DNA from: Azospirillum sp. 51_20
GTDB taxonomy: Bacteria > Pseudomonadota > Alphaproteobacteria > RF32 > CAG-239
Reading direction: 5' to 3'
Assembly (NCBI GenBank): GCA_001917175.1
Contig: MNTV01000018.1
Coordinates: forward strand, 53,907-117,906
DNA length: 64,000 nucleotides
The notes below the pieces were generated by a model. That model searched no databases. It was given only the letters and a program-made list of their open reading frames with translations, and was not told where the DNA came from. The position numbers and the translations under genes were made by a program. Of this stretch, positions 4,058 through 31,585 are shown one piece after another. Each line of letters begins with the position of its first letter. Positions within the stretch are counted from its first letter, which is position 1.

Positions 4058-4160
4058 TTTTGTGGCGGATTTTATCGTATTAGGCTAAAAACAACTTGTA
4101 TTATAGCTAAAAATCAGCTATTATAATTACTTGGAATACGATTTTTTTTGGGAGAAAAAA

Positions 4161-10335: not shown

Positions 10336-10395
10336 TTTCTTCCCCATCTGGTTAAACCTTTTTTCAGACTTTAGCACCGCTTGGTTAAACAATGC

Positions 10396-10701: not shown

Positions 10702-10801
10702 TGCGGCCTCCGGATCGGTTAAAAAAAGATTGTGTTAATCAACATAGATAATATAATGGGAAACGAATCGTTTTACCATAAAAATATTAGAGTTATCAAA
10801 C

Positions 10802-11779
10802 ATGAAAAAAACTATCTGGGCACTTATGGACGACCGGGCCGGCAGCGTCGGCCAGGCCAAGGGAATTTTCCCCGTCATCGAGGACGAATTTGAAATTATC
10901 GAAAAAAAGATCGTATATAACCGGCTGGCGGCTCTGCCGAACATGCTTCGCGGCAAAACCCTGATCGGCGTCAACCGCAAGGAAAGTTCGTCGCTCAAAA
11001 ACGAACCCTTCCCCGACGCCGTGCTGTCGATCAGCCGGCGGACCGCGCCGATTGCGCTGTGGCTGAAAAAGGCCTCCAAAGGCAAAACCAAGATTATCCA
11101 GCTGATGTTCCCGGGCAAATTCGGCTTAAAAGACATTGACCTGGTAATCATCCCCGAACACGACCGCGGCAAAGCGGAAGGCGACAACCTGTTCTACATC
11201 ACCGGCTGCGCCCACCGCGTTTCGGAAAAGGCGCTTGAAGAAGCCCGCGCCAAATGGGAAACCGAATTTGCCAAGCTGCCCAAACCGCTGACGGCGGTGC
11301 TGGTCGGCGGCGCGATCAAGAAAAAACCGTTTACCGCCGAAAACGCGGAAATGCTGGCCGACGCGATTTTGAACGTGCACAATCAGGTCAGCGGTTCGAT
11401 TCTGATCACTTCGTCGCGGCGCACCGGCAAAGAGGCGGAAGACATCATCATGAAGAAAATCGGCCATATCCCCGCTTACACTTATTTGTGGGGCGAGAAA
11501 AAAGACAACCCGATCATGGGCTTTTACGCCTGTGCCGACCGCATCATCGTTACCGGAGACTCCGTATCCATGGCCTGCGAAGCCTGCGGTTCGGGCAAGC
11601 CGGTACTGGTTTTCCGCGGCAAAAACTGGCTGACGCCGAAACATCAGCGCTTTGTTCAATCGCTTTACGAAGGCGGCTTTGCGGTCGACATCGACGGATA
11701 TGACACTGAGCAGACCGGCGCCATGAAACGGCTGGATCCGGCGCTTGAAATCGGCGAAAAAATAAAAGCCCTGTTTTGA
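10802..11779 (+). CDS. ELM1/DUF1022-family protein (putative glycosyltransferase-like)
   Basis: 325-aa ORF. The family call rests on recollection of the family and is not verified. Confidence 0.5.
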   Translation: MKKTIWALMDDRAGSVGQAKGIFPVIEDEFEIIEKKIVYNRLAALPNMLRGKTLIGVNRKESSSLKNEPFPDAVLSISRRTAPIALWLKKASKGKTKIIQLMFPGKFGLKDIDLVIIPEHDRGKAEGDNLFYITGCAHRVSEKALEEARAKWETEFAKLPKPLTAVLVGGAIKKKPFTAENAEMLADAILNVHNQVSGSILITSSRRTGKEAEDIIMKKIGHIPAYTYLWGEKKDNPIMGFYACADRIIVTGDSVSMACEACGSGKPVLVFRGKNWLTPKHQRFVQSLYEGGFAVDIDGYDTEQTGAMKRLDPALEIGEKIKALF

Positions 11780-11812
11780 CAAACACCGTTCCGAAAAAAA
11801 CGGAACAACGGC

Positions 11813-11846
11813 AAAAAAAATCCCCGGAAAATCCGGGGATTTTTCA
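11813..11846. terminator. Bidirectional rho-independent terminator between convergent genes
   Basis: CCCCGGAAAATCCGGGG hairpin flanked by A- and T-runs. Confidence 0.6.
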
Positions 11847-11863
11847 TATGCGGCGGACCGCCT

Positions 11864-12598
11864 TTAATACAGACTTTCCTTTTTGGTAACCACCACCTTT
11901 TGATACATGCGGCCGAAAAAGGTGGTTTTGCGCCAGAAAAACTCTGCCGGATTGCGGGCATAGTTTTTAATTTCGTTGTTCCACAGCTTTTCGGCAAAAG
12001 GCTGATAAAGGCGGTTGAAAAACTTGACGACATAGCGCAGCGGATGCCAGACCAGCGAATTGTTGTAGTCGACAAACACCGCCTTGCCGCCCGGCTTCAG
12101 GCAGTCGAGCGCGTTATTGACGATCCGCGCGCGGGTGGCCGACGGCACTTCGTGCAGCAGCATATAGCAGATGACGACGTCATATTTGCGCTTGGGCGGC
12201 TCGGAAGCGTCGCCGTTGACAAAGCGCATAAACGGATAAAGATAACAGTATTTGTTGCGCTGATGACGCAGCTGCACCATGCTGACGTCCAGCAGGTCAT
12301 AATGGCCGTAAATGCCGACTTTGGCCGCCGCCACCCCGATCTGGTCGCCGAAAGTCGCCCCCATTTGCAAAACGTCGGAAGAAACGGCAATTTCTCCGGC
12401 ACAGGACCGCAGCATTTTTGAACTGAAGCCAAACGTCAGCACATTGAGCAGACGCTGGTTGTCCAGCCAGCGGGTGAGGCGCGGGCTTTCATACAGCCAG
12501 CTGTAGAATTCCCGCTGATAGAGCGGAATCTTGGCCTTGTCCGCCGCCCGCCGGGCGGGGGGAATTTTACTCGCCTTTCTTCTCATTTTCTTCTCCAT
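11864..12598 (-). CDS. Class I SAM-dependent methyltransferase
   Basis: 244 aa with a methyltransferase-fold glycine motif (LDCLKPGGKAVF). Its 5' end overlaps the 3' end of rsmE. Confidence 0.6.
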   Translation of the reverse strand: MEKKMRRKASKIPPARRAADKAKIPLYQREFYSWLYESPRLTRWLDNQRLLNVLTFGFSSKMLRSCAGEIAVSSDVLQMGATFGDQIGVAAAKVGIYGHYDLLDVSMVQLRHQRNKYCYLYPFMRFVNGDASEPPKRKYDVVICYMLLHEVPSATRARIVNNALDCLKPGGKAVFVDYNNSLVWHPLRYVVKFFNRLYQPFAEKLWNNEIKNYARNPAEFFWRKTTFFGRMYQKVVVTKKESLY

Positions 12599-17861: not shown

Positions 17862-17964
17862 GAATGCCGAATCGCCGCATGCCGCCGGGTTAATGCGGCG
17901 CGGCCGGCGGCGAACATTTTTCTCAACACTGAAAAATCTCTCCTTCCGGAGGGATTTTTACTTT

Positions 17965-18063
17965 CGCGTTTTTATTTTTATACCTTGCCGTCGCTGCAGC
18001 CGCTTCGCTTTCGTTATACCATTTTAATACCGGCAGAACCGTCCGACGCGGTTTGCCGACCGG
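17965..18063. repeat. Left copy of a ~100-bp inverted repeat. Its partner is at 31128-31222.
   Basis: The reverse complement of 31128-31222 aligns with 17965-18063 at about 85-90% identity. The shared core is TTTTATTTTTATACCTTGCCG.CGCTGCAGCCGCTTCGCTTT.GTTATACCATTTTAATACCGGCAG. Confidence 0.7.
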
Positions 18064-18271
18064 CATCTTTTCTTCTTTTCGGGAACGTATTTTTTATCCA
18101 TAATTTTTTCCTTGTTAAACCAAAACAGAAAAAATCCCCTGTCGGGGCTAAAGAAAACAAAGCCGGAAATTGACAGACAAATAAGCAAAGCACAACGCAA
18201 ATATCTTTGAATGACAATAATAGCATGCAAATTCAACTTATTATACAAATTATGCCGTTTTTTTGAAATTT

Positions 18272-18301
18272 TTGTTGCAAAACTCAAGACAATGCTATAA
18301 T
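18272..18301 (+). promoter_or_regulatory. Sigma70-type promoter for tRNA-Ser
   Basis: TTGTTG/TTGCAA -35 elements and a TATAAT -10 ending about 16 nt before the tRNA 5' end. Confidence 0.5.
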
Positions 18302-18317
18302 CTGCCAACAGTTTTAC

Positions 18318-18408
18318 GGACAGGTGGCCGAGTGGTCGAAGGCGCACGATTGGAAATCGTGTGTACCCCTAAAGGGTACCAAGGGTTCGAATCCCTTTCT
18401 GTCCGCCA
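18318..18408 (+). tRNA. tRNA-Ser, anticodon GGA
   Basis: A manual fold gives a 7-bp acceptor stem (GGACAGG/TCTGTCC with one G-U pair) and an anticodon stem CACGA/TCGTG with loop TTGGAAA. There is a long variable arm of class II type, a GGTTCGAATCC T-loop, and an encoded CCA. Confidence 0.9.
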
Positions 18409-18416
18409 TTTTAATT

Positions 18417-18446
18417 AAAAAGACGCTCGTTTGCAGCGTCTTTTTT
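18417..18446 (+). terminator. Rho-independent terminator of the tRNA
   Basis: AAAAAGACGCT...AGCGTCTTTTTT hairpin. Confidence 0.65.
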
Positions 18447-18479
18447 CGTATCCGGCGGAAACACGGGCTTTGCGGGCAG

Positions 18480-18509
18480 TTGACATCGCCGAAATGACTA
18501 TGGTAAGCT
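18480..18509 (+). promoter_or_regulatory. Promoter-like element inside the direct repeat (TTGACA -35 and TAAGCT -10), reading into the island
   Basis: Perfect -35 hexamer, 18-bp spacer, and TAnnnT -10. It is conserved in the right-hand copy as TTGACT. Confidence 0.45.
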
Positions 18510-18591
18510 TGTTTTATGTTAAAAAATGCAAAAATTATGGCCCTTACATACAATGCCGATTTTTGTAAAGTCACTTCAGCGAGAAGAAACA

Positions 18592-19404
18592 ATGAGTGAG
18601 CTATCTTTTTCAGATAAAACAATTTTAGAAAATGCTTTGAATATGCATAATGGATATGTGTTAAATTTTACAGATCGTACTTTTTCAGATTTTTTTGCTA
18701 CGTTGGGAATAGATATTAATGCTGAAAAATACATGGCCAATGGAACATCTAAAGCTAATCGTCTTAGAACTTTTTGGAATATAGAAGATAATTTTGTAGT
18801 AGGGAAAGCAATTATAGAGTTAGCTAATATGATGAAGGCAGAAAATTTGTCTCAAACAACTGGTGTTAAAGCAGCGTGGATGACAGCTGGTGCTAAAAAT
18901 TTTTTTGAACAACAGCGAATATTAATTGAGCAAGTAGAAAAGATTGGATCAAAACTGGTAGATAATAAAGTTGTATCTCAAACAAAACCCAAGATAAATA
19001 CTTTTCAATATTGTAATGAACTTAATATCAGGATCAGAGAAGAAATTTACAGTCATATAAAACGTTATTTGGATAATGAAGATTATTTTCATGCTATAGA
19101 AGAGGCTTATAAAGTCGTAAGACATAAATTAAAAGAAATTACAGCAAAAGAAAAAGCCTCAGATGTTTTTAATCCAAATGCAGAAAATACCAAGTATCAT
19201 GAAAAATTATTTGGTGAAAATGCAGCTGTCGGCAGTCCTAAATATGATTTTTTTCGTGGTGTTGGTTATTTGCATTTGGCAGTTCAATTCCTACGAAATG
19301 AAAAAGCCCATATGCTAGCTCATGATTTAGATAAAAATTTGGCTCTTCATTATTTATCTTTGGCTAGCTTATCTTATGATTTAATTTCTAGAAATAACGT
19401 TTAA
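18592..19404 (+). CDS. Hypothetical protein. Its C-terminal region loosely resembles the Abi_C/TIGR02391 abortive-infection-associated domain. This is a tentative call.
   Basis: 271 aa, AT-rich. The C-terminus has FLRNEKAHML..HDLDKNLALHYLSL. It is the first gene inside the island, directly downstream of the repeat-borne promoter. Confidence 0.5.
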   Translation: MSELSFSDKTILENALNMHNGYVLNFTDRTFSDFFATLGIDINAEKYMANGTSKANRLRTFWNIEDNFVVGKAIIELANMMKAENLSQTTGVKAAWMTAGAKNFFEQQRILIEQVEKIGSKLVDNKVVSQTKPKINTFQYCNELNIRIREEIYSHIKRYLDNEDYFHAIEEAYKVVRHKLKEITAKEKASDVFNPNAENTKYHEKLFGENAAVGSPKYDFFRGVGYLHLAVQFLRNEKAHMLAHDLDKNLALHYLSLASLSYDLISRNNV

Positions 19405-21024
19405 CATCTTTTCCTGCTCTTCAAAGATTAGGTTTTTAGAGGCGATATCGAAGAGGGTTTGCAGATTGATGGTTAGGGTTCCGGAGAGAAGTTGATTGAC
19501 TATTCTTGGTGAGAGGTAGGCAAGGTTGAGATATTTGTAGATGGTACGTTTGGAGATGTGTTCTTGCTTGGCGATGTCATCGGTTGCCATACCGTTTTCA
19601 TAAAGTTTTTTATACCGCCAAGCATAGGCAAAGGCTCGGACAATCAAGCGGTTGTTGTCATTCACACTCATCAGCCCGACTTTACCAGCGTTATAGACAT
19701 TGCTTGACAGCCCGCGGTTGATGATGACTTGTTTTTCATAGATGATTTGATTGTTGGCATTATCGGCAATGAACTCTAGCGGATTATCGTTTTGGTTTAA
19801 CGAATCGCTGGTATAGGCTGAGAGAATTATCGGATCGGTATTAAAAAAGAAGGTCAGGCGATCTTTTTGATAGATGATTTTGTTAATGAAGTTGCGGATA
19901 AAATTGCGTTGCGCGAAGTAGTCCATATCAGTAAAGTTTATCAGCTTTAGAGCCATGGCGCTATCTTTGTTCAGCCCATTGAAGTTACTGTTAAGAATTT
20001 CAATTATGGCATCTTTGGCGAGCTTATCAATTTGTTCTGTTGGCAGGAACAAGCCTTTGATAGAATAGTAATGTCTTTTGGTAGCTTTCTTTTTGCTGTT
20101 GGCTTGATTGGTAAAAATGGTGCCATTGGCATCAAATAACTTGCCTGTCAGCAGGTTATTGTTTCGGCTCCTTGTATGATTAGCGCAGTTGTCATTTTCT
20201 TTGAGCATGGCTTGCACCTTTTCCCATAATTCTTTTGATATGATGGCCTCATGCTGTCCTTTAAATGCTTGTCCGGTGCGTTTGTTCTCAATCATGCCGA
20301 GGTATAATTTTTCATGCAGCAAGCGGTGGAGCGCGGATATTTTAAAAGGTTTGCCGCCTCTCTGTTCCCCCTTGTTGGTTATCCAGCTTTTATGTTTGAA
20401 ACCTTTAATTTCAGCAAATTTCTCAAGTTCGGTCAGAGAGCCGCATTGTAAATAGCCTTCAAAAATGCTGTGTACCTGTTCGGCCTCGACGGGATTAATG
20501 ACCAGTTTTTTGTCTTTAATATCATAACCAAGTTTGGGAACGCCGCCCGTCCATAAGCCTTTGGCTTTACTGGCGCGGATTTTATCACGGACACGCTCTG
20601 AGGATACCTCTCGCTCGAATTGAGCAAAGGACAGCAACATATTTAAGGTCAGCTTGCCCATGGAGGTTGAGGTATCAAATGCCTGTGTGATCGAAACAAA
20701 ACTGCAGCCATATTTATCAAATTCTTTCATCATATTGTGGAAGTCCATTATTGAACGTGACAAACGGTCAACTTTGTAAACCACTACCGTTTGAACTAAT
20801 CCTCGGCGGATGTCTTCAAGCATTTGTTTTAAAGCCGGGCGTTCCATTGTGCCGCCGGAAATGCCGCCGTCGGTATAGGTTTTGAAATATTCCCAGTTGT
20901 TAAAGGCTTGAGACATAATGTAACTGCGACAGGCGTCTTCCTGATTATGCAGCGAGTTAAACTCAAGCTCCAAGCCTTTTTCGGTAGATTTGCGGACATA
21001 GATCGCGCAGTTTATTCTAATCAT
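19381..21024 (-). CDS. Large serine recombinase (resolvase/invertase N-domain, recombinase domain, zinc ribbon)
   Basis: N-terminus AIYVRKSTEKG...VYKVDRLSRS matches a resolvase catalytic domain. At 547 aa it has the length of a large serine recombinase. Confidence 0.9.
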   Translation of the reverse strand: MIRINCAIYVRKSTEKGLELEFNSLHNQEDACRSYIMSQAFNNWEYFKTYTDGGISGGTMERPALKQMLEDIRRGLVQTVVVYKVDRLSRSIMDFHNMMKEFDKYGCSFVSITQAFDTSTSMGKLTLNMLLSFAQFEREVSSERVRDKIRASKAKGLWTGGVPKLGYDIKDKKLVINPVEAEQVHSIFEGYLQCGSLTELEKFAEIKGFKHKSWITNKGEQRGGKPFKISALHRLLHEKLYLGMIENKRTGQAFKGQHEAIISKELWEKVQAMLKENDNCANHTRSRNNNLLTGKLFDANGTIFTNQANSKKKATKRHYYSIKGLFLPTEQIDKLAKDAIIEILNSNFNGLNKDSAMALKLINFTDMDYFAQRNFIRNFINKIIYQKDRLTFFFNTDPIILSAYTSDSLNQNDNPLEFIADNANNQIIYEKQVIINRGLSSNVYNAGKVGLMSVNDNNRLIVRAFAYAWRYKKLYENGMATDDIAKQEHISKRTIYKYLNLAYLSPRIVNQLLSGTLTINLQTLFDIASKNLIFEEQEKMLNVISRN

Positions 21025-21469
21025 GAGCCGTCTCCTTTAATGCCCGTTTGTTATTTAATCCGAAGAAGTCATAACCGGAAACCTTTATGCCGCAGATTTC
21101 TTTGGCTACAGCGGATAAGGTTTTATAATGCTGTCCGTTGTAGATAAAATCGTTAATCTCAGCTATAGTAACCTTATATTGTCGACCAAGATAGGTTTTA
21201 ATGATTTCGGTACCGGGATGCAGATTGTATTTGGTCTTATAAACCTTAACCATACACTCATCGGGGTTTTCGGCGTATTTTTCTAGCTTAGTCAGATGTT
21301 TGCGTTCAATTTTAAGATTGGCGTTTTCGCAGGCGTTATAATACCACAGTGCGCGAAACTGCCGTTCATAGGGACTGTTATGATACCGCGCCCATAGTTC
21401 AGCTTGTTTCTGGTGATTTAGCTTTTTTAATTCTTCAGCGCTTTTCGGCAGATAAATCTTCTTTCTCAT
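21017..21469 (-). CDS. DUF2924-like protein, a partner commonly found upstream of large serine recombinases
   Basis: 150 aa. Its stop overlaps the recombinase start. It has an ELWARY...RQFRALWYY pattern. Confidence 0.55.
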   Translation of the reverse strand: MRKKIYLPKSAEELKKLNHQKQAELWARYHNSPYERQFRALWYYNACENANLKIERKHLTKLEKYAENPDECMVKVYKTKYNLHPGTEIIKTYLGRQYKVTIAEINDFIYNGQHYKTLSAVAKEICGIKVSGYDFFGLNNKRALKETAHD

Positions 21470-21662
21470 CGGTCAACTCCTTGTTTTTTATATATTTTCC
21501 AAGTAAAGCAACGCTTACTGTTTTAAGAAAGTCAAGCCTAATAGCTTGGTTTCTCCAAGCCTTTGATTTTTAATGATAAATCTCGAGTTTGATTTTTGTA
21601 TATTATATACAATCCTCCGTTTGAGGAGGAATCTGTTTAAATTGAAATAAAGGAGAAAAAGT

Positions 21663-22997
21663 ATGTCTGATATGTATATAAAAATTGAATATACAGCCTT
21701 GGAAAATCTTAACCCTTATAAAGGAAATCCTAAGGTTCATGACGAGAAACAAATTCAGCAAATTGCTAAGTCGATTGAAAGATTTGGTTTTAATAATCCC
21801 ATTTTGATTGATGAAAAATCAGAGGTAATTGCCGGTCATGGTCGTCTGTTGGCCGCAAGACTGTTAAAACTGGAAACAGTTCCGGTAGTTCGTCTCATAC
21901 ATCTTTCTGAAGCGGAAAAACGGGCTTATCGCATAGCAGACAATAAATTATCAGAGAATGGTCGATGGGATACGGATTTGTTAAAGCTGGAATTTTCAGA
22001 AATTGAGAAACTGGCTCTGAATCTTGAAGATGAATTGAATCTGGATATTACCGGGTTTGATTTTAAGGAGATAGATGTTCTTTTGGCCGATAATAAATCC
22101 AACGAAAAAGCGGATGAAAAACTTAATTCCGTTCCGTATGTGCCGGAAAATGAAATAGTCAGTCAACACGGCGATGTCTGGCTTCTGGGAAAACACAAAA
22201 TTATTTGCGGAGATTCATTGCAAGGGGAAACATATCAGCGTTTGTTTGAAGAGGTTAAAGCCAATATGGTTTTTATTGATTCGCCGTACAATGTTAAAAT
22301 TCAAGGACATGTTTGCGGCGCAGGTCAAACGAAGCATAAAGAGTTTGCCTTTGGTTCCGGCGAGATGAATGAGGCTGAATTTATTTCGTTTTTGAAAACA
22401 TCAATGGCGAATATAGCCAAATATTCTGCTGAAAATTCCATTCATTATATTTGCATGGATTGGCGACATATATCCGAGCTGCTTTCCGCTTCTCGAGATA
22501 TCTATCCCCAAATGCTGAATATGGTGGTTTGGTGCAAAAAGAATGGTGGGATGGGTAGTTTTTACCGATCCCAGCACGAATTGATTTTTGTTTTTCAGAA
22601 TGGAAAAGGCTCTCATGTTAATAATGTGGAGTTAGGCAAGCATGGCCGCTATCGAACAAATGTTTGGCATTATGCCGGTGTTAACAGTTTTGGCTCCGAA
22701 CAGAAAAATCTTAAAATGCATCCGACGGTCAAACCGGTAGAATTAGTCCGCGATGCAATTTTGGATGCGTCTAAACGGGGCGATATTGTGCTGGATGCGT
22801 TTCTCGGCAGCGGAACAACGCTGATTGCAGCAGAAAAAGCCGGACGTGTTTGTTATGGAATCGAGTATGAGCCCTTGTATATCGATACGATTATCCGTCG
22901 GTATCACGAATTAACTGGAAATTGGGCAATTCATCTAAGTTCGCAAAAATCATATGAGCAATTATTGCAAGAAAAATTGGAGAAAATCAATGAGTGA
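21663..22997 (+). CDS. ParB-like N-terminal domain fused to a DNA methyltransferase (N6-adenine / N4-cytosine beta class)
   Basis: N-terminal ParB-like segment (IAGHGRLLAA). The central DSPYN motif is of the DPPY type. The gene lies immediately upstream of terminase-associated genes, a typical phage arrangement. Confidence 0.8.
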   Translation: MSDMYIKIEYTALENLNPYKGNPKVHDEKQIQQIAKSIERFGFNNPILIDEKSEVIAGHGRLLAARLLKLETVPVVRLIHLSEAEKRAYRIADNKLSENGRWDTDLLKLEFSEIEKLALNLEDELNLDITGFDFKEIDVLLADNKSNEKADEKLNSVPYVPENEIVSQHGDVWLLGKHKIICGDSLQGETYQRLFEEVKANMVFIDSPYNVKIQGHVCGAGQTKHKEFAFGSGEMNEAEFISFLKTSMANIAKYSAENSIHYICMDWRHISELLSASRDIYPQMLNMVVWCKKNGGMGSFYRSQHELIFVFQNGKGSHVNNVELGKHGRYRTNVWHYAGVNSFGSEQKNLKMHPTVKPVELVRDAILDASKRGDIVLDAFLGSGTTLIAAEKAGRVCYGIEYEPLYIDTIIRRYHELTGNWAIHLSSQKSYEQLLQEKLEKINE

Positions 22998-23361
22998 AAG
23001 CGGTTATAAAAATCCGCCCAAACATTCGCGATTTCAGAAAGGGTGTTCGGGTAATCCTGCAGGGAGGCCGAAAGGAAGCAAGAACACGCTCAAACTTCTG
23101 GATGCTGTTTTGGAACAGAAAATTAAAATTCAGCAAGAGGGCAAAACCATCAGCATTACCAAAAAGCAGGCGATGCTGATGCAATTGGTTAATGCTGCGG
23201 TAAAAGGCGAAATTAAGGCCATTGCGGCGCTTTTTCCATACATGATGCAGCTGGACATGAAAGAAGAGCAATCCTTGGAAACAAACAAATTGTCTCTAAA
23301 AGATGAGGAAATTTTACAACAATTTTTAGAAGAAAATAAACAGGAGAGTAAAAATGACTGA
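22990..23361 (+). CDS. DUF5681-like protein of the kind usually found just upstream of a large terminase. It may be a small-terminase-like or packaging accessory protein.
   Basis: Basic N-terminus (KNPPKHSRFQKGCSGNPAGRPKGSKN). Its ATG overlaps the TGA of the preceding gene, and its stop overlaps the TerL start. Confidence 0.55.
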   Translation: MSESGYKNPPKHSRFQKGCSGNPAGRPKGSKNTLKLLDAVLEQKIKIQQEGKTISITKKQAMLMQLVNAAVKGEIKAIAALFPYMMQLDMKEEQSLETNKLSLKDEEILQQFLEENKQESKND

Positions 23362-24919
23362 TATAAATCAGGTTAAAAATGCGATATTACGCAAAAGTTT
23401 TTCAAGCTTTGTACAGAAGTGTTTTTATGAATTAAATCCTTCGGAGGCATTTATAAAAGGCGCGTATATAGACTTATTATGCGATCAAATCCAAAATATG
23501 ATAGAGGGAAAAAATCAGAAATTGATAATCAATCTTCCTCCAAGATATTTAAAATCGGTTATATGTTCTATAGCTTTGCCCGCGTTTATTTTGGGGCATA
23601 ATCCGTCAACTAAAATTATGTGCATCAGCTATGGTGAGGAGTTGGCTTCCAAATTAGCGGCTGATTGTAAGAGCGTTATGGAGGCGGATTGGTATAAAGC
23701 GCTTTTCCCTGAGACGAAAATCCGGACAGATAAAAAATCTGTTATGGATTTTGAAACGACAAAACACGGCGGACGGTTTGCGACGACAATTTCAGGAGCA
23801 GTCACAGGACGCGGCGCAGACTGGATTATTATAGATGATCCGCTAAAACCGGCTGATGCCCTTTCAGACGTGGTTAGGGAAAAAATTAATGAACTCTATG
23901 GAAATACTGTCAGTTCCAGACTGAATGATAAAAATACCGGGAGAATACTCGTGGTCATGCAGCGTTTGCATGCGCATGATTTATCCGGTTTCCTGTTTGA
24001 GAACGATCCTGATTTTAAGTCTATCGTCTTGCCGCTAATTGCTGAAAAAGATGAAAAATGGCAAATAAAAAATCGTATTGCCAAAACGATAACGACATAT
24101 GAGCGGAAAAAAGGAGAATTGTTGCATCCGGAACGCGAAGGCGAAAAAGTTGTAAACAGTTATCGCAATTCGATGAGTCCTTTTGTATTTTCTGCGCAAT
24201 ATCAGCAGAATCCAATGCCTATCGGCAGCGGAATGATCAAACAGGAGTGGATGAAGTATTATCAAGCACTGCCGTCAAGATTAGATAAAATTATTTTATC
24301 GTGGGATACAGCGGCTAAGGCTATGGAAAATAACGCTTATTCTGCCTGCGCGGTTGTCGGAATCGGAAATGAAAATGGTCAGAAATATTATCTGATAGAG
24401 GTGTTTCGCGGCAGACTTAATTTTCCTGAATTAACAAAAAAGGTTCAGGAAATATCTGATAAATATGAAAGAATTGCGCAGGGGCGGACTATAACTTTGA
24501 TTGAAGACGCCTCATCCGGAACTTCTTTATATCAAACGTTGAAAGGTAGAATCGCAAGCCTGAAGTCTGTTTTTTGCAAAGGTTCTAAGGAGCAGCGCTT
24601 TAATATTGTCACGTTAAAAACCGAGCAAGGGGACTTGTTGTTTCCGGGCAAATATGAATCCTGGTTCAAAAATTTTGAAGATGAGTTCTTAACTTTTCCG
24701 AATTCTTTATTTAAGGATCAATGTGACGCATTGAGCCAAGCCCTGAATTATGGTTTGGAAAATTATAATCAGGTTTCGCAAAATATGCCGTTGGCCGCCC
24801 GCGTGGATACGATGTGCGGTATGGGCGGTTATAATACCGGCATAGAGGAACTCTATAGCATGAATAATATACCATATAAATCTAATGGAGGCTATGCTTG
24901 GTGGAATGGTAAATCTTAA
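23354..24919 (+). CDS. Phage terminase large subunit
   Basis: 521 aa with an N-terminal ATPase region (hhhhDDP Walker B at WIIIDDPLKP) and a C-terminal nuclease-like region. Confidence 0.75.
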   Translation: MTDINQVKNAILRKSFSSFVQKCFYELNPSEAFIKGAYIDLLCDQIQNMIEGKNQKLIINLPPRYLKSVICSIALPAFILGHNPSTKIMCISYGEELASKLAADCKSVMEADWYKALFPETKIRTDKKSVMDFETTKHGGRFATTISGAVTGRGADWIIIDDPLKPADALSDVVREKINELYGNTVSSRLNDKNTGRILVVMQRLHAHDLSGFLFENDPDFKSIVLPLIAEKDEKWQIKNRIAKTITTYERKKGELLHPEREGEKVVNSYRNSMSPFVFSAQYQQNPMPIGSGMIKQEWMKYYQALPSRLDKIILSWDTAAKAMENNAYSACAVVGIGNENGQKYYLIEVFRGRLNFPELTKKVQEISDKYERIAQGRTITLIEDASSGTSLYQTLKGRIASLKSVFCKGSKEQRFNIVTLKTEQGDLLFPGKYESWFKNFEDEFLTFPNSLFKDQCDALSQALNYGLENYNQVSQNMPLAARVDTMCGMGGYNTGIEELYSMNNIPYKSNGGYAWWNGKS

Positions 24920-24925
24920 GACGTT

Positions 24926-25258
24926 TTACTTGGCGATTATTTCAAAATTGTCAATCAGCTTTAGCAGGGATTCCTTTTGAGAATCAGTCATAAGGTTGAG
25001 TTTGCGGATGATTTTGTCTTTCACGTCCTGCTGCGATATATCTTCTTTCAAATCTTTGGTAATATCAATGTCCAAAGCGAAAAGCAGTTTGTACAGCGAG
25101 TAGGAGCGCGGATTTTGCTTTTGATTCTCAATCAAGTTAATAGACGAATAATCCATACCGCTCAGCTCGGACAATTTTTCACTGGAAATTTTGCCGGCTA
25201 ATCGTCTTTTTCGAATAGAATCGCTGATAAGCCTTAAAAACTCTTTTTCATTAAGCAT
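24926..25258 (-). CDS. XRE-family helix-turn-helix transcriptional regulator
   Basis: 110 aa with an HTH at KISSEKLSELSGMDYSSINLIENQKQNP. It is divergent from the downstream plus-strand block, with an AT-rich promoter region at 25259-25379. Confidence 0.75.
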   Translation of the reverse strand: MLNEKEFLRLISDSIRKRRLAGKISSEKLSELSGMDYSSINLIENQKQNPRSYSLYKLLFALDIDITKDLKEDISQQDVKDKIIRKLNLMTDSQKESLLKLIDNFEIIAK

Positions 25259-25379
25259 GCTTCACCCCTTAAAAATATATTGGGATGATACAATAGCTTT
25301 TTCGATAAAAGTATTGCGATAAAACAATATAATTTTATTGACTAAACAAAATAATTAAACCAACATAAGGAGAAAGAAA

Positions 25380-25673
25380 ATGGCGTTAGTTTACGTTACG
25401 GACATTGAATATCAGGCAGATATAAAAGTATTTGCCGTTAATGAGAGGTATCAGGCTGATTTATGTTTTTTCGAGGTTGATCGAGATTACAAGGCCAATA
25501 CGGAGGCAAAATGGTTTTTTGAAGATAAGGACTATAAAGCGACGGTTAAAATATATTGGGTTGAACATGAGTATCAGGCAGATTTGAAAGTCTTCCGGGT
25601 TACGCAGGAACACCTAGCCGGTTGGCAAAAGAGCCACCGTTTGATTACGAGATTGGGAAAATACACATATTAA
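25380..25673 (+). CDS. Small protein built from tandem ~12-residue repeats (EYQADIKVF / RYQADLCFF / DYKANTEAKWFF / DYKATVKIYWV / EYQADLKVF)
   Basis: Direct reading of the 97-aa ORF. The repeats have period [D/E/R]Y[Q/K]A[D/N/T] followed by alternating hydrophobic positions. A strong AAGGAG ribosome-binding site lies upstream. Confidence 0.5.
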   Translation: MALVYVTDIEYQADIKVFAVNERYQADLCFFEVDRDYKANTEAKWFFEDKDYKATVKIYWVEHEYQADLKVFRVTQEHLAGWQKSHRLITRLGKYTY

Positions 25674-25686
25674 AGGAGATAAAAAA

Positions 25687-25935
25687 ATGACAGAAGAAGT
25701 TAAAAAAGAAACCCCAAAAACAAAATTGCCCGGCTTGCCGCCGTTGGTTGCGTTTATTTATGCGGTTCTCATTTTTATTATGACCATGGGGTACCTTAAG
25801 GTATTTCTTATTATGGGTTTCAGGATGAATCCTGATGAAGCCGGAATATTGTCATTTTTTGCGGGAGCGTTTTTTGCCTATATCGGCAACAAAGGAGTTA
25901 GAGCCATGTTTAAGCTGAGAGAACTGTCAAAATAA
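25687..25935 (+). CDS. Small membrane protein (2-3 TM)
   Basis: 82-aa hydrophobic ORF translationally close to its neighbours. Confidence 0.45.
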   Translation: MTEEVKKETPKTKLPGLPPLVAFIYAVLIFIMTMGYLKVFLIMGFRMNPDEAGILSFFAGAFFAYIGNKGVRAMFKLRELSK

Positions 25936-25947
25936 AGGATTTAGGTT

Positions 25948-26760
25948 ATGGTTAGGATATTGCGCGCAGCAACTTGGAACTTTGGCTACGGTTCTGTTGG
26001 TTCACCCAGCAAGAACAACAAGACGAAAGTTCAAAAAGCCCTTGAATATCTGCGGAAAAATAATGTGGATATTGTTTTGGCGCAGGAAATTTTTGATCCA
26101 AACGAGTTGCGGCGTCTTTATCCTAACCAGATTTATTCTGACGTTCCCGTTTATAATCCGCAGGGGCAAGGATTATGGGGCGCGATGGATTTTTCGATTG
26201 ATACGCGCAATAACAATAGCCGCCCTAAATGGGGAACGGCGATATTGGCTGCCGAGAATGTCAATTTGAGCAAAATTGAGTTAAAATATAGCACCGCCTA
26301 TCCGGGAAGCATGACTGTTGCACAGATTGCAGGAACGGACATTGCCGTTATTTCCATGTATGGCAAAAATGTCTATGATTATGAAAAAGTAACGGCTTTT
26401 TCGTATCTGGCCAATCTGCATCGCTGTTTATCCGATACTGCGCCGCTGCTGGACGGTTTTTCTTCTGCCAAAAGATTTATTATCGCCGGCGATTGGAATG
26501 CCGGGCCGCAATGGGATAAGGGAAAGTCGCGCAAGAATTTTAACTTTTTTGAGCGGTTGGCAACCTTTGATCTTAAGGATTGTTTGGGGCATTTTCCTGA
26601 CGGCGGTTATGAAACGACATTTAAACATAACGGCAATCGACAAATAGACTGGATGTTTGCCAGCCAGGCGTTTACTGTTCATAATCCGCATATTGACTAT
26701 GTAGCGGAGATTGAGGATTTGTCTGATCATTACCCGATAATTGCGGAATTTGAGATATGA
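25948..26760 (+). CDS. Endonuclease/exonuclease/phosphatase (EEP) family protein
   Basis: 270 aa. N-terminal ATWNFGYG and C-terminal SDHYPIIAEF motifs are typical of the EEP fold. Confidence 0.75.
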   Translation: MVRILRAATWNFGYGSVGSPSKNNKTKVQKALEYLRKNNVDIVLAQEIFDPNELRRLYPNQIYSDVPVYNPQGQGLWGAMDFSIDTRNNNSRPKWGTAILAAENVNLSKIELKYSTAYPGSMTVAQIAGTDIAVISMYGKNVYDYEKVTAFSYLANLHRCLSDTAPLLDGFSSAKRFIIAGDWNAGPQWDKGKSRKNFNFFERLATFDLKDCLGHFPDGGYETTFKHNGNRQIDWMFASQAFTVHNPHIDYVAEIEDLSDHYPIIAEFEI

Positions 26761-27188
26761 AAAAGGGTAATGTAATGTTTTGGAAATTCTTATTTTTAGG
26801 CTTTATTGTATGTTTTTCTGTTCAAGCACAGGAAAAAGCCAATAGTACCAGCGAACAAAATGATTATGGTATCTTTATTATCGGTGTTGCGATTTATTTA
26901 CTTTTTAAAGCAGTGGGGGTTATCTGGCATTATCGCTGTCCGAAATGCAAAAAATGGTGGGTAATGCGACAGGAAAAGAAAGAACTGCTGAATACGGATG
27001 TTGTGACCGAATCCAGAAAAGAAGAAATAAAAGACAATAACGGAAATGTGTTGCGGGTAGAGGAAGTAGAGGTTCCCGTATTGGTTCGTCATTATGAAAT
27101 TTGGCGAAAATGTAAGCATTGCGGACATCTTGTTAAGATTTTTGAAGACGAGAAGGAAGAAAAATATAACAGAACACCGCTTAAATAA
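26757..27188 (+). CDS. Membrane-anchored zinc-ribbon protein
   Basis: Signal/TM sequence at the N-terminus, a second TM, and two CxxC pairs (CPKCKKW ... CKHCGH). Confidence 0.5.
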   Translation: MKKGNVMFWKFLFLGFIVCFSVQAQEKANSTSEQNDYGIFIIGVAIYLLFKAVGVIWHYRCPKCKKWWVMRQEKKELLNTDVVTESRKEEIKDNNGNVLRVEEVEVPVLVRHYEIWRKCKHCGHLVKIFEDEKEEKYNRTPLK

Positions 27189-27203
27189 TGAGAGGAAACA
27201 GAT

Positions 27204-28160
27204 ATGCGGAAAATTAGTTGGCTGGCGATTTTGTTGATAGGCGGATGTACTCTGATAGTAGAACAGAGTAATCTTGTTTCCTTAAATGATTCTTCAGAAT
27301 TCCGCTTTCTGGATGAACAGGTATTCATATGCTCGTGCCGTCAGCTCAAGGAAGAAAGTTATGATATTTTCTATGCGGCGGAAAATCAAAAATGTCTGGA
27401 AGAGAATGCCAAGCAAATGCAAAAGCTGTCCGAACAGATTGAGCAGACGAATGATTTAATTAAGAAAGAGAAACTTCTTGATGATGTATTGGCAAGTTCT
27501 GAAAAGTTTGATGCCTGTAAAATATCTAAGGGGTTAACTGTTGCCGGTTTTGCTAAACAATCTAATGACAGCGCTATTGCATACTGGGAGCGTGATAAAA
27601 TAATCGCTTATTTTACCCAAACTTATCAGATTTGTGAAAATGGAGAATATTTTGATAAGAATGACGGAAGCCGTATTGTTGCGGATTATCAAACTGTGGC
27701 GCGGCAAAAAGAGAAAAATACGCCGAAGATAGAAAAATTTAAGGAGTTAAAAAGCAAAATTTCCTCTCAAAATCAGATGAATAAAAAGATTGCGGCGCTT
27801 TTATCCGGAGACAATCCGATTATAAGAAAAATGCAGCAGGCAGCTCCTGATTTTATGCGGGTAAAGGTTAATGAATGTCCGATAATCTTTTTTGTGCAGT
27901 TTCTCAAGGAAAATGTGGCAATGTTTAATTCTGATTTTGCCTTTGCTGATAACTATCAATTTAAGAAAAAAGGCGCAGACACGCTTGTTTTGACTGTCGG
28001 TGATATCGAATATACTTTCCTGAAAAAAGGAAAAGACAGCGCGGATGTCATAATTGTTAAAGATATTGATCAATGGGGCAATCAGATAATCAATAAAAGC
28101 ACTATTCTAAATAATATTGACGTTTCCTCATCGTGCTGGGGGTATTATAAGGCTATATAA
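27204..28160 (+). CDS. Lipoprotein of unknown function
   Basis: MRKISWLAILLIGGC lipobox. 318 aa, AT-rich. Confidence 0.55.
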   Translation: MRKISWLAILLIGGCTLIVEQSNLVSLNDSSEFRFLDEQVFICSCRQLKEESYDIFYAAENQKCLEENAKQMQKLSEQIEQTNDLIKKEKLLDDVLASSEKFDACKISKGLTVAGFAKQSNDSAIAYWERDKIIAYFTQTYQICENGEYFDKNDGSRIVADYQTVARQKEKNTPKIEKFKELKSKISSQNQMNKKIAALLSGDNPIIRKMQQAAPDFMRVKVNECPIIFFVQFLKENVAMFNSDFAFADNYQFKKKGADTLVLTVGDIEYTFLKKGKDSADVIIVKDIDQWGNQIINKSTILNNIDVSSSCWGYYKAI

Positions 28161-28246
28161 AAAATTTGGAGATATTTGCATTTAATTGTAGAAATATTGT
28201 ATGTAAACTGATATTAACTAATTATTAATAACTTTAAGATTAGCTA

Positions 28247-29071
28247 ATGTTAAATAGAGACTTAATAATATCTCCTTTTTTAAAATGGGCAGGTGGAAAG
28301 CGTTGGCTTATTCATCAATGCATTGATATTTTCCCTAAGCAAAATGAATATAATGTTTATTATGAACCTTTTTTGGGAAGTGCGGCGGTTTTTTTTCATT
28401 TAAAACCGTTTCATGCTGTTTTATCTGATATTAATGCGGAACTAATAGATACATATAAAACTATTAAAAGTTCTCCTTCCGCTGTCGTTTCATTATTGAA
28501 AAATCATCATAATTTACATAGCAAAGAACATTATTATCATGTAAGAAGTGCTTTATATTCTAACGATGTTGAAAAAGCTGCTCGTTTTATTTACTTAAAT
28601 AGAACTTGTTGGAATGGGTTATATCGTGTTAATAATTCTGGAGGATTTAATGTCCCTATCGGCACTAAAACAAAAGTGATTCTCGATAACGATAATTTTG
28701 AGGCAGTTGCTAAATTGTTAGAAAATGCAATAATATTAAAAATGGATTTTGAAGAAGCTATGCAACAAGCTCAAAAAAATGATTTTATTTTTGTAGATCC
28801 TCCATATACAGTTAAACACAATTCTAATGCTTTTGTGCAATATAATGAAACGTTGTTTTCTTGGGCGGATCAAGTTCGTTTAAGAGATAGCGTAGAAAGT
28901 GCTGTTAGTAGAGGTGTTAAAGTTTTAGTTACAAATGCTAATCACTCCTCAATTAGAGAGTTATATGATGGTTTGGGAGATATGATCTGTTTATCTAGAG
29001 CTAGCGTTTTGGCATCAAATCCTGAAAAAAGGGGGAAATATGAGGAGTTAGCTATAAAATGTGGTTATTAA
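28247..29071 (+). CDS. Dam-family (D12 class) N6-adenine DNA methyltransferase
   Basis: N-terminus PFLKWAGGKRWL, FxGSAAV, and a DPPY motif (FVDPPYT). 274 aa. Strongly AT-rich relative to the host sequence. Confidence 0.8.
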   Translation: MLNRDLIISPFLKWAGGKRWLIHQCIDIFPKQNEYNVYYEPFLGSAAVFFHLKPFHAVLSDINAELIDTYKTIKSSPSAVVSLLKNHHNLHSKEHYYHVRSALYSNDVEKAARFIYLNRTCWNGLYRVNNSGGFNVPIGTKTKVILDNDNFEAVAKLLENAIILKMDFEEAMQQAQKNDFIFVDPPYTVKHNSNAFVQYNETLFSWADQVRLRDSVESAVSRGVKVLVTNANHSSIRELYDGLGDMICLSRASVLASNPEKRGKYEELAIKCGY

Positions 29072-29577
29072 ATATAAGAAAAATAGGCTTTGAATTATGG
29101 AAATGGCTTCTAGCATGGTTTTTTGTCTCTTTACCTTCTTTAGTTACAATGTTCTGGCTATGGGTAAGAGAAAAAGAGCTTGCTAAACCAAGTATCATGG
29201 GCATTGGTACGAGTGAATTCCTTGTTTATGCTATATCTTTTTCTGCCCCATTGTTTGCTCAGTGTTTCTTTAAAAATAGAACAAAAAAGTTATTTCATTT
29301 TACAGATTTTATTGCTTTTATAATTTTTTTAGCATCAATAGTTCTATTTATTATGCTAAAAGAAGAAACAGCAATAGATAAATTAAATATATTATTTAGA
29401 TGGGTTTTGATATTGTATATAGCTTCTTTACTATTTTCTTTGTTATCAGCTTTATGCATTGCTCTTATTCCAGATAGAGAAACTATTGAAAAAGCAAATA
29501 TTGAGCAACAAAATGATTTTAATTCTGCATTTGATAAAATCTTAGAAGAACGAGGTGTGAAAAATGAACACATATAA
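29059..29577 (+). CDS. Membrane protein with four predicted TM helices and unknown function
   Basis: 172 aa. It overlaps the Dam stop by 13 nt, and its own stop is overlapped by the DGQHR gene start. Confidence 0.55.
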   Translation: MWLLNIRKIGFELWKWLLAWFFVSLPSLVTMFWLWVREKELAKPSIMGIGTSEFLVYAISFSAPLFAQCFFKNRTKKLFHFTDFIAFIIFLASIVLFIMLKEETAIDKLNILFRWVLILYIASLLFSLLSALCIALIPDRETIEKANIEQQNDFNSAFDKILEERGVKNEHI

Positions 29578-30718
29578 AACTAAGGTTATTAAAGTTCGTC
29601 AACCGATAGGTGACTTTTATATAGCATCTTTGCCTTGTAGTATCGTTGCTCAAATTGCGACTGCAGATGTTAGGCGTTTGGAAGAGCGAGATGTAGAGAA
29701 ATATCTTGGAATACAAAGGCCTTTAAAAGAAGATCGAGTTAAAGAACTACAAAAATATGTTAAAACTATGGATGCGACATTTCCTACTTCTGTTATTTTA
29801 GCGGTTGATGAGAAGTGTGCATCTTTAAATGAAGATGATATGGAGTTAACGTTGTCTGAATACATAGATAATGAACATCCTGAAGATTCTATTCCAATGG
29901 AACAAGTTGCAAAAATAATTGATGGTCAACACCGAATAGCTAGTTTCGTTGAAATAGATAAGGATGGACAACGTATATTTAAGTTTGGAGATGAAATTTT
30001 TGATATAAGTGTGGCAATATTTATTGGCGCGGATATATCGCAACAAGCTAACATTTTTTCTACGGTTAATTTAGCTCAAACTAAGGTAAACAAAAGTTTA
30101 GCATATGATTTAGCAGATTTAGCAAAATATAGAAGTCCTCAAAAAACATGTCATATGATTTCAGTTATGCTTGATTCTAGAGAAGATAGTCCTTTTTATC
30201 AAAGAATTAAGCGGTTAGGTGTCAAAACACAAGGGCGGGTACAGTTAGAGCCTTTAACTCAAGCTGTGTTTGTTGAAGCTTTGATGAAATTTATATCTGC
30301 AGAACCGATGAAAGATAGAGATTTGTTGCAGAGGAAAAAAAGTCTTCCACTGCTTAACGATAAAGATTTAGTCAAATTTCCTTTTAGAAATTTGTTTATT
30401 GAAGAAAAAGATTCAGATATTGCATTTATTATATATGAATATTTTTCAGCAATAAAAAGTTTGTGGCCAAAATCATGGAATGATTTAACGACTAAAGGAA
30501 ATATTCTGCCTAAAAGTAATGCTTTTAGGGCTTTTATGCGGTATTTACATGAAATATGTGGAGAAAATCTAAATAAAATTATGAATAGAAATGACTTTTT
30601 GTCGTATTTTAATAAAGATGCTTTTATTGATGGAGATGTTACCAGCCAACAATTTTTACCAGGTAGTGGTGGAGAAGCTGCATTTTTGAAAAAATTACAA
30701 AAAAAGCATTGTGATTAA
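29564..30718 (+). CDS. DGQHR-domain protein (DndB-like, ParB/Srx-related DNA-binding family)
   Basis: Contains the literal motif IIDGQHRIASF. 384 aa. It is the last gene of the plus-strand block in the island. Confidence 0.75.
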   Translation: MNTYKTKVIKVRQPIGDFYIASLPCSIVAQIATADVRRLEERDVEKYLGIQRPLKEDRVKELQKYVKTMDATFPTSVILAVDEKCASLNEDDMELTLSEYIDNEHPEDSIPMEQVAKIIDGQHRIASFVEIDKDGQRIFKFGDEIFDISVAIFIGADISQQANIFSTVNLAQTKVNKSLAYDLADLAKYRSPQKTCHMISVMLDSREDSPFYQRIKRLGVKTQGRVQLEPLTQAVFVEALMKFISAEPMKDRDLLQRKKSLPLLNDKDLVKFPFRNLFIEEKDSDIAFIIYEYFSAIKSLWPKSWNDLTTKGNILPKSNAFRAFMRYLHEICGENLNKIMNRNDFLSYFNKDAFIDGDVTSQQFLPGSGGEAAFLKKLQKKHCD

Positions 30719-30972
30719 TCCCTTTTTTTGATAAAAATTCCCTGATAAATTTGTGGCTAGGTAGGCACAATCCAAGTAAATCTGTATATTTGTGAGAATT
30801 TTGCATGTAAAATCCACCCAAATTTCCCTGCAGATTCTCTGTTATTAGAGAATGGATAATGATACATTCGTAATTTGGTGGTAGAAAAGATTTATGGTCA
30901 TCGGTTTAGAATATTAGCGAAATTTCATCTTTCGTATGCTTAATACCGTTGGGGTTTACTACACCGCCATTT

Positions 30973-31122
30973 TGATTAAAAAGACGCTAAATGATAGCGT
31001 CTTTTTTTGTATCCGGCGGAAATGCGGGCTTTGCGGGCGGTTGACTTCGCCGAAATGACTATGGTAAGCTCGTTTTATATTGGAAAATGCAAAGTTTTAG
31101 GCAGTTACATACGATGCCAGTC
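30973..31122. repeat. Right copy of the ~150-bp direct repeat. It is not preceded by a tRNA.
   Basis: See the 18403-18560 entry. It begins ACACCGCCATTTTGATTAAAAAGACGCT. Confidence 0.75.
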
Positions 31123-31127
31123 AGCTA

Positions 31128-31222
31128 ACCGCACCGGACGGACCTGCCGGTATTAAAATGGTATAACAAAAGCGAAGCGGCTGCAGCGGCGGCAAGGTAT
31201 AAAAATAAAAATGCGAATGCCG
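31128..31222. repeat. Right copy of the ~100-bp inverted repeat
   Basis: See the 17965-18063 entry. Confidence 0.7.
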
Positions 31223-31585
31223 ATTTCGGGAGAGGCGCTTCAAATATTATCTTTTATAGTTTGCACTTTGATAACAGGTACCCAAATTGTTAACCAGCAA
31301 GTTATCCTGTATTGAATTACAAGCGACTGCGGTTGTAGATATTTTATTATCAGTCACGGAAGATTTGAACGCTTAAAACGCTCCCGGGCAGGCTTTTGTT
31401 ATTGCAAAATTTACCAATTTCAACCTTTTTTCCAAAGGCAGCCAATATCAACGGCCCCGGCCGGCAATTCTGCCATATCTTTTTTATCAGCGGGTTCTCC
31501 GCAGGCATGGCTCATTCCCATACACACCAGACCGACGGCCGAAACTTCCGACTCTCCGATTTTACGCTATCTCACATTCTGATTC

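Follow-up and report, generated by a model that had tools for sequence, protein, structure and literature searches.

Among the phage satellites described so far, the large terminase subunit (TerL) is a core marker only of the cf-PICIs (phage-inducible chromosomal islands, PICIs, of the capsid-forming kind), which are helper-dependent and carry their own TerL and small terminase (TerS) together with a major capsid protein, a portal and head-tail connectors (PMC10085698). They further encode a protease, a tyrosine integrase and a primase-replicase. Classical PICIs, including the Staphylococcus aureus pathogenicity islands, use a small-terminase-type gene to redirect packaging by the TerL of the helper and obligatorily contain a primase-replicase and origin. 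Large serine recombinases (LSRs) are known from the PLEs (elements resembling phage-inducible chromosomal islands) of Vibrio cholerae and from marine virion-encapsidated integrative mobile elements (VEIMEs, module 3), satellites reported with small-terminase homologues at most and no TerL (PMC9618062). Within a 64,000-nucleotide stretch of contig MNTV01000018.1 from Azospirillum sp. 51_20 (hereafter the window), we analysed a 12,561-bp island at positions 18409-30969, which is inserted at a tRNA-Ser gene and encodes both its own TerL and an LSR. Judged by its genes, this island would work like a satellite, yet it fits no described satellite family. With a modest lean in its favour, our preferred explanation is a new family of satellite-like islands which depend on a helper but provide a terminase of their own.

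All substantial open reading frames (ORFs) of the island were scanned against Pfam, PHROGs, NCBIfam and PADLOC. As an earlier first-pass annotation of the sequence had claimed, no ORF matched a portal, capsid, tail or lysis family in Pfam, PHROGs or further scans; relaxase and type IV secretion system families were likewise absent from every ORF in Pfam-type scans, an oriT not being recognisable from sequence. The island resembles cf-PICIs in its chromosomal location, its own TerL with a TerS candidate and a helper dependence that is presumed here, but there is no capsid, portal or connector match in Pfam or PHROGs, and the protease, tyrosine integrase and primase-replicase are missing as well. 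With classical PICIs (~12-17 kb) it shares site-specific integration, a presumed repressor, defence cargo and the lack of structural and lysis genes, its 12.56 kb falling within the ~10-18 kb of such site-specific elements without virion genes, and it has a DUF5681 gene in the small-terminase position. Unlike them it has its own TerL, an LSR and no replication module: neither a primase/replicase with ori nor a tyrosine integrase with AlpA or Stl was found, but a serine recombinase, no AlpA match and a small XRE regulator. Of the earlier label "satellite/PICI-like", the satellite-like part is supported by comparison with a monophyletic portal-less lineage described below, whereas a strict PICI, with AlpA/Stl layout, primase-replicase and tyrosine integrase, can be dismissed. 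PLEs and VEIMEs are alike in their LSRs and differ in having no reported TerL; no other PLE gene is shared, PLE-specific genes not having been searched for individually. P4-like satellites and tRNA defence-island hotspots also combine a conserved backbone with interchangeable defence hotspots, tRNA insertion and presence or absence between strains, but the P4 backbone is unrelated and the island has a pair of hotspots, situated within either att end. In the window element no Pfam or PHROG match was seen to Psu, Sid, Delta, alpha primase or epsilon of P4, and a P4 cII-like gene was seen only as cargo in one relative (L046). Finally, the block of (recombinase, DUF2924 and) ParB-nuclease-methylase, DUF5681-type protein and TerL is shared with Wolbachia phage WO, Leptospira phage LE3 and the IMG/VR contig L068, which differ in that TerL is directly followed by a portal and then by the other genes of the virion module. 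In phage WO the same left-end gene order lies within a complete prophage (PMC10299305), and the cultured phage LE3 has a ParB-like nuclease gene upstream, followed by DUF5681, TerL and then the portal.

Five genes make up the backbone of the island and of its relatives, encoding the LSR, a DUF2924 protein, a ParB-like nuclease-methyltransferase fusion (ParB-MTase), a DUF5681 protein and TerL. They occur together at loci of TerL relatives with 66, 52, 50, 48, 48, 48, 35 and 34% identity, in two gene orders and in gut, marine and soil data, and all other genes vary. TerL homologues total ~6,600. We scanned IMG/VR with a TerL profile and classified the loci by their neighbouring genes. At a TerL identity of at least 35% (32 loci), ParB-MTase and/or DUF5681 were present in 28 and an LSR in 20, frequently in the order ParB-MTase, DUF5681, TerL, small ORF, DUF2924, LSR, and a portal-sized ORF followed downstream only in L068, a 39.6-kb phage contig. 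At an identity of 34% or less (48 loci), no LSR was found except for one weak 31% match on the short contig L083. In related phages the portal is the ORF after TerL in 24/24 tested cases, L068 included; island-type loci with enough downstream sequence for judgement had no portal-sized ORF at this position, and TerL is followed by XRE, cargo or DUF2924-LSR. A neighbour-joining tree fully separated 27 LSR-linked from 25 portal-linked TerLs (bootstrap 94/100), with L068 (ParB-MTase, DUF5681, TerL, portal) in the sister group of the former. This separation argues for a single origin of the portal-less architecture, in a phage that had this packaging block, and for its persistence over deep divergence. 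Collectively, the loci make up a coherent family of islands, apparently undescribed so far, which lack capsid genes, carry a terminase and a serine integrase, and ferry defence systems. Full-text literature searches, whose coverage is incomplete so that an earlier description elsewhere is possible, returned no description of this architecture. The distant relative L047 adds a DnaB-family helicase and Bro-N, and it alone has a DnaB_C gene.

Exact copies of the TerL protein occur in 1571 assembly blocks, and it equals a protein of the gut metagenome-assembled genome (MAG) "Azospirillum sp. 51_20"; the hosts in genome records are uncultured gut Alphaproteobacteria. At the same chromosomal site, other strains combine this core with varying cargo, of at least four kinds on the left and several on the right. 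Copies range in size from 12.6 to ~17 kb, and at least three tRNA-Ser isoacceptor genes (GGA, TGA, CGA) are occupied. From ParB-MTase to XRE, the core has 99.7-100% nucleotide identity at four loci whose host flanks show no detectable similarity, the syntenic nitroreductase being only 44% identical in protein. This near-identity at four unrelated loci points to a recent spread of the element between hosts. All 11 core genes have dN/dS values of 0.04-0.3 (LSR 0.05-0.10, TerL 0.11-0.19, the operon at 25380-28160 0.1-0.3), and the island is thus an intact mobile element under purifying selection rather than a decaying one. Under the name "Bacteriophage sp.", a 5.4-kb piece of the element is on deposit from Mexican samples of human faeces, which would match a virome study of DNase-treated virus-like particles (PMC8361208), a fitting but unverified link.

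The borders and the backbone of the island read as follows (window coordinates, strand).

18318-18408, +: host tRNA-Ser(GGA), integration target and B arm of attB (ARAGORN, Rfam, junction alignments)
18409-18585, +: left end of the element, attL side, present at all loci; beyond it the sequence diverges into cargo
19381-21024, -: LSR with Resolvase, Recombinase and C-terminal HTH_7 domains (Pfam; phrog_95 integrase)
21017-21469, -: DUF2924 protein with RAMA-like DNA-binding domain, constant partner of the LSR (Pfam)
21470-21662, no strand: control region separating the diverging operons for recombination and for packaging, with the palindrome TTGTATATTATATACAA (sequence)
21663-22997, +: fusion of a nuclease-like ParB_N domain with an N6/N4 DNA methyltransferase, gene 1 of the packaging operon (Pfam; phrog_498)
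22990-23361 (longer ORF from 22954), +: DUF5681 protein in small-terminase position, overlapping the TerL start (Pfam)
23354-24919, +: TerL, T7-type ATPase and RNase-H-like nuclease (phrog_38, E 4e-97; Terminase_6C; profile match to T7 gp19)
24926-25258, -: XRE-family helix-turn-helix regulator, divergent from the DUF6150 operon (Pfam)
30880-30969, +: right end of the element, P arm of attP, ...TCTTTCGTATGCTTAATACCGTTGGGGTTTACTACACCGCCA, the same in all variants and then followed by host-specific flank
30970-31118, +: host region downstream of tRNA-Ser, outside the element, also present in empty sites, with ~85% identity to the left end of the element

The first-pass annotation had placed a tRNA-Ser-adjacent island at 18409-31122. 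Its left border was confirmed, and the insertion proved to be precise, at the 3' end of tRNA-Ser(GGA). The right border had to be moved to 30969, since 30964-31118 is host sequence downstream of the tRNA and is found in empty sites. Such empty sites, which the first-pass annotation had proposed to look for in related genomes, exist in conspecific strains whose nitroreductase protein is 100% identical to that of the window host. When window positions 17862-18408 are joined to 30970-31585, the result matches them gaplessly over 1163 nt with 98-99.7% identity, and therefore the element comprises 18409-30969, its right end being directly followed by host DNA in the junction alignments. The GC content changes from ~0.52 upstream to 0.30-0.43 directly past tRNA-Ser(GGA), until ~31.0 kb. 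Each attL compared consists of the host tRNA-Ser ending in CCGCCA and then the element-borne TTTTAATTAAAAAGACGCT..., and each attR of the conserved element terminus ...GTTGGGRTTTACTACACCGCCA and then a flank that differs by host. The junctions share only CCGCCATTTT, which places the crossover somewhere within this motif, in or adjoining the last tRNA bases CCGCCA; the attP junction of the excised form is predicted to read ...TTTACTACACCGCCATTTTAATTAAAAAGACGCTCG.... This precise conservative insertion between short att sites, without long target duplication, is the pattern of large serine recombinases. The left end of the window element is identical to that of L006, where the target is another tRNA-Ser, and supplies a tRNA terminator hairpin of the element's own, AAAAAGACGCT...AGCGTCTTTTT; a promoter-like TTGACA...TGGTAAGCT faces the left cargo slot, read from the sequence and at chance level in a consensus scan. 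Rfam found only the tRNA, and the promoter/terminator scan gave only chance-level matches.

An imperfect direct repeat of 155 nt (85% identity; 18403-18557 and 30964-31118) was considered as a pair of duplicated att sites and rejected, the right copy being host sequence that occurs in empty sites too. At a tRNA-Ser(TGA) gene, L006 has an element identical to that of the window, with the left copy of this repeat and no right copy. In a second host species, the native tRNA flank matches the left end of the element for 59 nt. Such likenesses may mean that the element took up a terminator/promoter segment from a host or, alternatively, that the "native" regions are scars of earlier elements. Besides, an inverted repeat of 105 nt (90% identity; 17963-18067 and 31113-31217) brackets the tRNA-Ser together with the 155 nt downstream of it. 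Its presence in empty sites as well makes it a host feature, which could be MITE-like (resembling a miniature inverted-repeat transposable element) or an invertible segment.

All genes named in the first-pass annotation (LSR, DUF2924, ParB-methylase, DUF5681, TerL, XRE) were recovered by Pfam and PHROGs. The LSR (547 aa, within the ~450-700 aa of its family) matches PF00239 at residues 7-157 (E 1.5e-40), PF07508 at 178-277 (E 8.5e-15) and phrog_95 (E 4e-96), with HTH_7 at 472-500; Zn_ribbon_recom was undetected here and is seen in a second LSR of L017. By these domains, it is the predicted catalyst of integration and excision. The DUF2924 protein, whose likeness to RAMA has been described (PMC11342252), may act as a recombination accessory or directionality factor. 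Together they were thought to form the left edge of the element; the pairing is confirmed, but the very edge is occupied by a Hypoth_Ymh gene (18526-19404) between attL and the LSR. The control region at 21470-21662 is a hotspot of divergence among variants in sliding identity comparisons, and the XRE regulator is presumably a repressor.

For TerL, a single-sequence search of the PDB gave no match, and a profile of 23 family members was used instead, which aligns to the ATPase domain of T7 gp19 (8dgc, 4bij; E 1e-6); the nuclease domain matches PF17289 (E 7.8e-8). In 27/27 island-type TerLs, the P-loop residues K67/S68, Walker B D161/D162 and R204/H206/D209 are invariant, as are D318, E384, D455 and D458 of the nuclease, and all of them are equally invariant in portal-linked phage TerLs, so that the island TerL looks functional. 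The DUF5681 gene lies directly upstream of terL and overlaps it (22990-23361 vs 23354), an arrangement kept throughout the family. In L013, which has a recombination breakpoint within TerL, the nuclease/C-terminal half of TerL and XRE are swapped (47-78% identity), whereas the ATPase half and the neighbouring genes have 91-97% identity. Such a swap would look like adaptation to different helpers, since the exchanged parts are those expected to contact the portal or to sense the helper.

These data suggest the following life cycle. The XRE repressor would hold the integrated element silent until infection or induction of a helper phage, upon which the LSR would excise the element. Its terminase would then recognise the element DNA and pump it into procapsids made by the helper, and the element would travel in helper particles and re-integrate at a tRNA-Ser gene of a new host. 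The island would thus be a satellite with its own packaging motor in place of capsid-remodelling genes. That the packaging operon belongs to the element's own propagation machinery is suggested by its being as invariant as the integrase while the rest turns over. The wider claim, that the five-gene backbone marks a hitherto unrecognised, ancient and widespread satellite family which takes only empty procapsids (and tails) from its helper, has a complete terminase of its own, no capsid-remodelling and often no replication genes, and serves as a major defence vehicle in gut and environmental Alphaproteobacteria, is one we regard as a real possibility, with the balance tipped slightly against it. 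In a bolder variant of it, the backbone islands would package from the integrated state as dedicated lateral-transduction engines.

Several observations weigh against a helper-dependent satellite. No helper phage was identified, and the closest TerLs of cultured phages are only ~30% identical. No ORF matched a primase, helicase or Rep family, and neither a replication gene nor iterons or tandem repeats occur in the window copy, which leaves no evident route to a concatemer as packaging substrate. The element contains no capsid-size or helper-interference genes of known type, and IMG/VR holds no close copy of it. The DUF5681 protein is a candidate small terminase by its gene position, for which profile and fold gave no confirmation: against an annotated TerS profile, hhalign reached a probability of 26%, covering the basic N-terminal arm only, and the AlphaFold2 model (pLDDT 79) found nothing in the PDB and one weak TerS match (E 0.67) in BFVD with Foldseek. 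There was also no evidence of an excised circle: a scan of metagenome contigs for the attP junction gave seven matches, all of them attR of the second host species with the left-end-like native flank of 59 nt, which speaks neither for nor against circles. Of two element-sized contigs, L132 holds an integrated copy that host DNA flanks on either side, L134 begins inside the left end of the element and ends within the right cargo, and neither has a terminal overlap. Moreover, all hosts are uncultured, many flanks come from metagenome contigs and at least one of these (L003) looks chimeric.

Part of this evidence would also suit an integrative defence island with a domesticated terminase, in which the LSR moves the island and ParB-methylase, DUF5681 and TerL are kept for a role other than transfer. 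Such a role could be competing for the procapsids of an invading phage, cutting its concatemers, or DNA methylation, and the island would owe its spread to transformation, mobilisation in trans or generalised transduction. Defence systems indeed crowd both ends, a replication module and evidence of a helper or circle are lacking, and anti-packaging defences encoded by prophages and satellites have reportedly been found. However, the defence genes are interchangeable cargo, whereas the packaging operon equals the recombinase in its constancy throughout the family and co-diverges with it. A decoy needs no intact ATPase and nuclease centres, yet both are intact in 27/27 TerLs, and near-identical copies in unrelated hosts would still demand an efficient transfer route; we therefore consider such a domestication unlikely. 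The terminase might instead start from the integrated element, in the manner of lateral transduction or of a gene transfer agent, and fill helper capsids with headfuls of right cargo and chromosome, so that defence genes and host DNA are mobilised instead of, or besides, the excised element. This would fit the missing replication gene of the window copy, the direction of the packaging operon towards the right cargo slot and host flank and the sizes of 12.6 to ~17 kb, which indicate no strict unit length; phages and PICIs are reported to move defence systems by lateral transduction (PMC12829572). Precise att-to-att copies with identical core at different tRNA-Ser genes show, on the other hand, that the whole element including the LSR moves as a unit, and the flanking host DNA of different host lineages is without similarity, which makes packaging in situ improbable.

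The first-pass annotation had also offered a prophage remnant, that is, the inert left end of a serine-integrase prophage with its structural genes deleted. LSR/DUF2924, ParB-methylase, a small protein and a terminase do form the left end of real prophages such as phage WO (PMC10299305), and the ParB-methylase/DUF5681/TerL trio precedes the portal in LE3 and L068. Nevertheless, every core gene is under purifying selection, ORFs and catalytic residues, including the invariant ones of TerL, are intact, and the insertion is precise, with both att arms intact and empty sites available for comparison. Near-identical cores lie at several unrelated loci and in several hosts; their differing flanks exclude that one deletion was handed down within a single clonal line, and the portal-less state, being ancient and monophyletic, is no recent deletion. 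A full-length prophage at this tRNA, which would have pointed to a deletion derivative, is present in no strain examined: all occupied sites hold the same capsid-less element with different cargo. Hence, we reject an inert remnant as very improbable.

If helper-dependent islands of this family do combine their own terminase with foreign capsids, they would add a new satellite strategy to capsid remodelling, TerS redirection and the capsid-forming PICIs. With a serine integrase and neither a primase-replicase nor capsid genes, they would escape current satellite finders. The islands occur in a large share of the human-gut metagenomes that contain these uncultured Alphaproteobacteria, and shuttle Hachiman, pAgo-SIR2, restriction-modification (R-M), reverse transcriptase (RT)-based and other defence systems between host lineages. 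Since the C-terminal half of TerL is swapped between alleles, the family could serve as a clean natural experiment on terminase-portal requirements, and serine integrases aimed at the 3' ends of tRNA-Ser genes may interest genome engineers.

The remaining genes of the window element are the following.

18526-19404, +: Hypoth_Ymh/TIGR02391 protein in the left cargo slot, between attL and LSR (Pfam/NCBIfam-type scans); replaced in other strains by an RT system or different genes
25380-25673, +: DUF6150/Septknot protein, gut-subfamily core (Pfam)
25687-25935, +: p82, membrane protein of 82 aa, gut-subfamily core
25948-26760, +: nuclease/phosphatase of the EEP (endonuclease/exonuclease/phosphatase) fold, gut-subfamily core
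26757-27188, +: p143, 143 aa, with signal/transmembrane segment and Zn-ribbon, gut-subfamily core
27204-28160, +: p318, lipoprotein of 318 aa, gut-subfamily core
28247-29071, +: Dam-type D12 methyltransferase, right cargo slot (family scans)
29059-29577, +: p172, protein with three transmembrane segments, right cargo slot (family scans)
29564-30718, +: DGQHR (DndB/DpdB-like) protein, right cargo slot (family scans)

Everything outside the recombination, packaging and repressor genes had been taken for accessory cargo. This holds for Ymh and for the Dam/p172/DGQHR trio, but not for the operon at 25380-28160 (DUF6150, p82, EEP gene, p143, p318), which is conserved across the gut subfamily. With a membrane protein, a protein with signal/transmembrane segment and Zn-ribbon, and a lipoprotein, its products look envelope-associated. 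The DUF6150 protein ("Septknot" now in Pfam) has four internal repeats of the EYQADxKVF type, and its pairing with XRE is kept even in L047, with 48% TerL identity. p318 is found in this element family alone and its alleles diverge sharply (33% in L013); a replication or capsid protein was ruled out by its lipoprotein signal peptide and this restriction to the family, and one may speculate that a role in surface exclusion or phage contact would fit.

There is one variable cargo slot just inside each end, occupied in the window by Ymh (left) and by Dam/p172/DGQHR at 28247-30718 (right), a trio which is a candidate for a modification-based (modification-dependent) defence system. Relatives carry SIR2-pAgo with EcoO109I R-M, DpnII R-M, a SNF2/DUF4391/SLFN/methylase system, KAP and AAA_13 ATPases, an ABC-3C-type system with RT-protease, and Hachiman. 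Found in the right slot are Hachiman (HamA and DEAD helicase; L132, 11650-15130), a QueC/M78-HTH/DUF3368 set (L134, 9736-13396) and EcoO109I R-M with SIR2-pAgo (L023, 14507-19852), which makes this slot a rich hunting ground for new defence systems.

Some further loci concern the history of the tRNA-Ser sites. L044 (2637-6516) holds a cargo-only mini element with a 571-aa protein and a 586-aa DUF262/GmrSD-like protein between element-type ends (left 137 nt, right 40 nt), without recombinase and terminase, which may be a non-autonomous derivative mobilisable in trans. In L036 (~10290-11950; the same locus as window 31116), an otherwise empty site has a 1.7-kb insertion with a Fic protein and a 111-aa ORF, 147 nt past the tRNA and bounded by a direct repeat of ~29 nt; its position is that of the start of the element's left cargo slot. 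L039 (3120-7510) strings together a right end, a 1.6-kb segment also present in L009, a left end, an LSR minus its first 147 codons and another right end, a tandem/degenerate arrangement that looks as if elements had accreted and decayed at this tRNA. L003 joins a left flank of the L004/L005 host type to a right flank of the window host type and is probably a chimera formed in metagenome assembly where the element is identical, which calls for caution in inferences from flanks. A copy with a 74% TerL allele lies on a 7.7-kb contig (L012) in a MAG of the Gastranaerophilales (cyanobacteria-related Melainabacteria). Mis-binning of this short contig is more likely than cross-phylum carriage, and we do not rely on it for a host claim. 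Elsewhere in the window, two type IVb pilin genes (PilS/Bundlin-like; 4131-4739 and 7341-7928) lie in a second low-GC patch (0.41-0.46) alongside sulfatase fragments, which could be a variable surface or phage-receptor locus.

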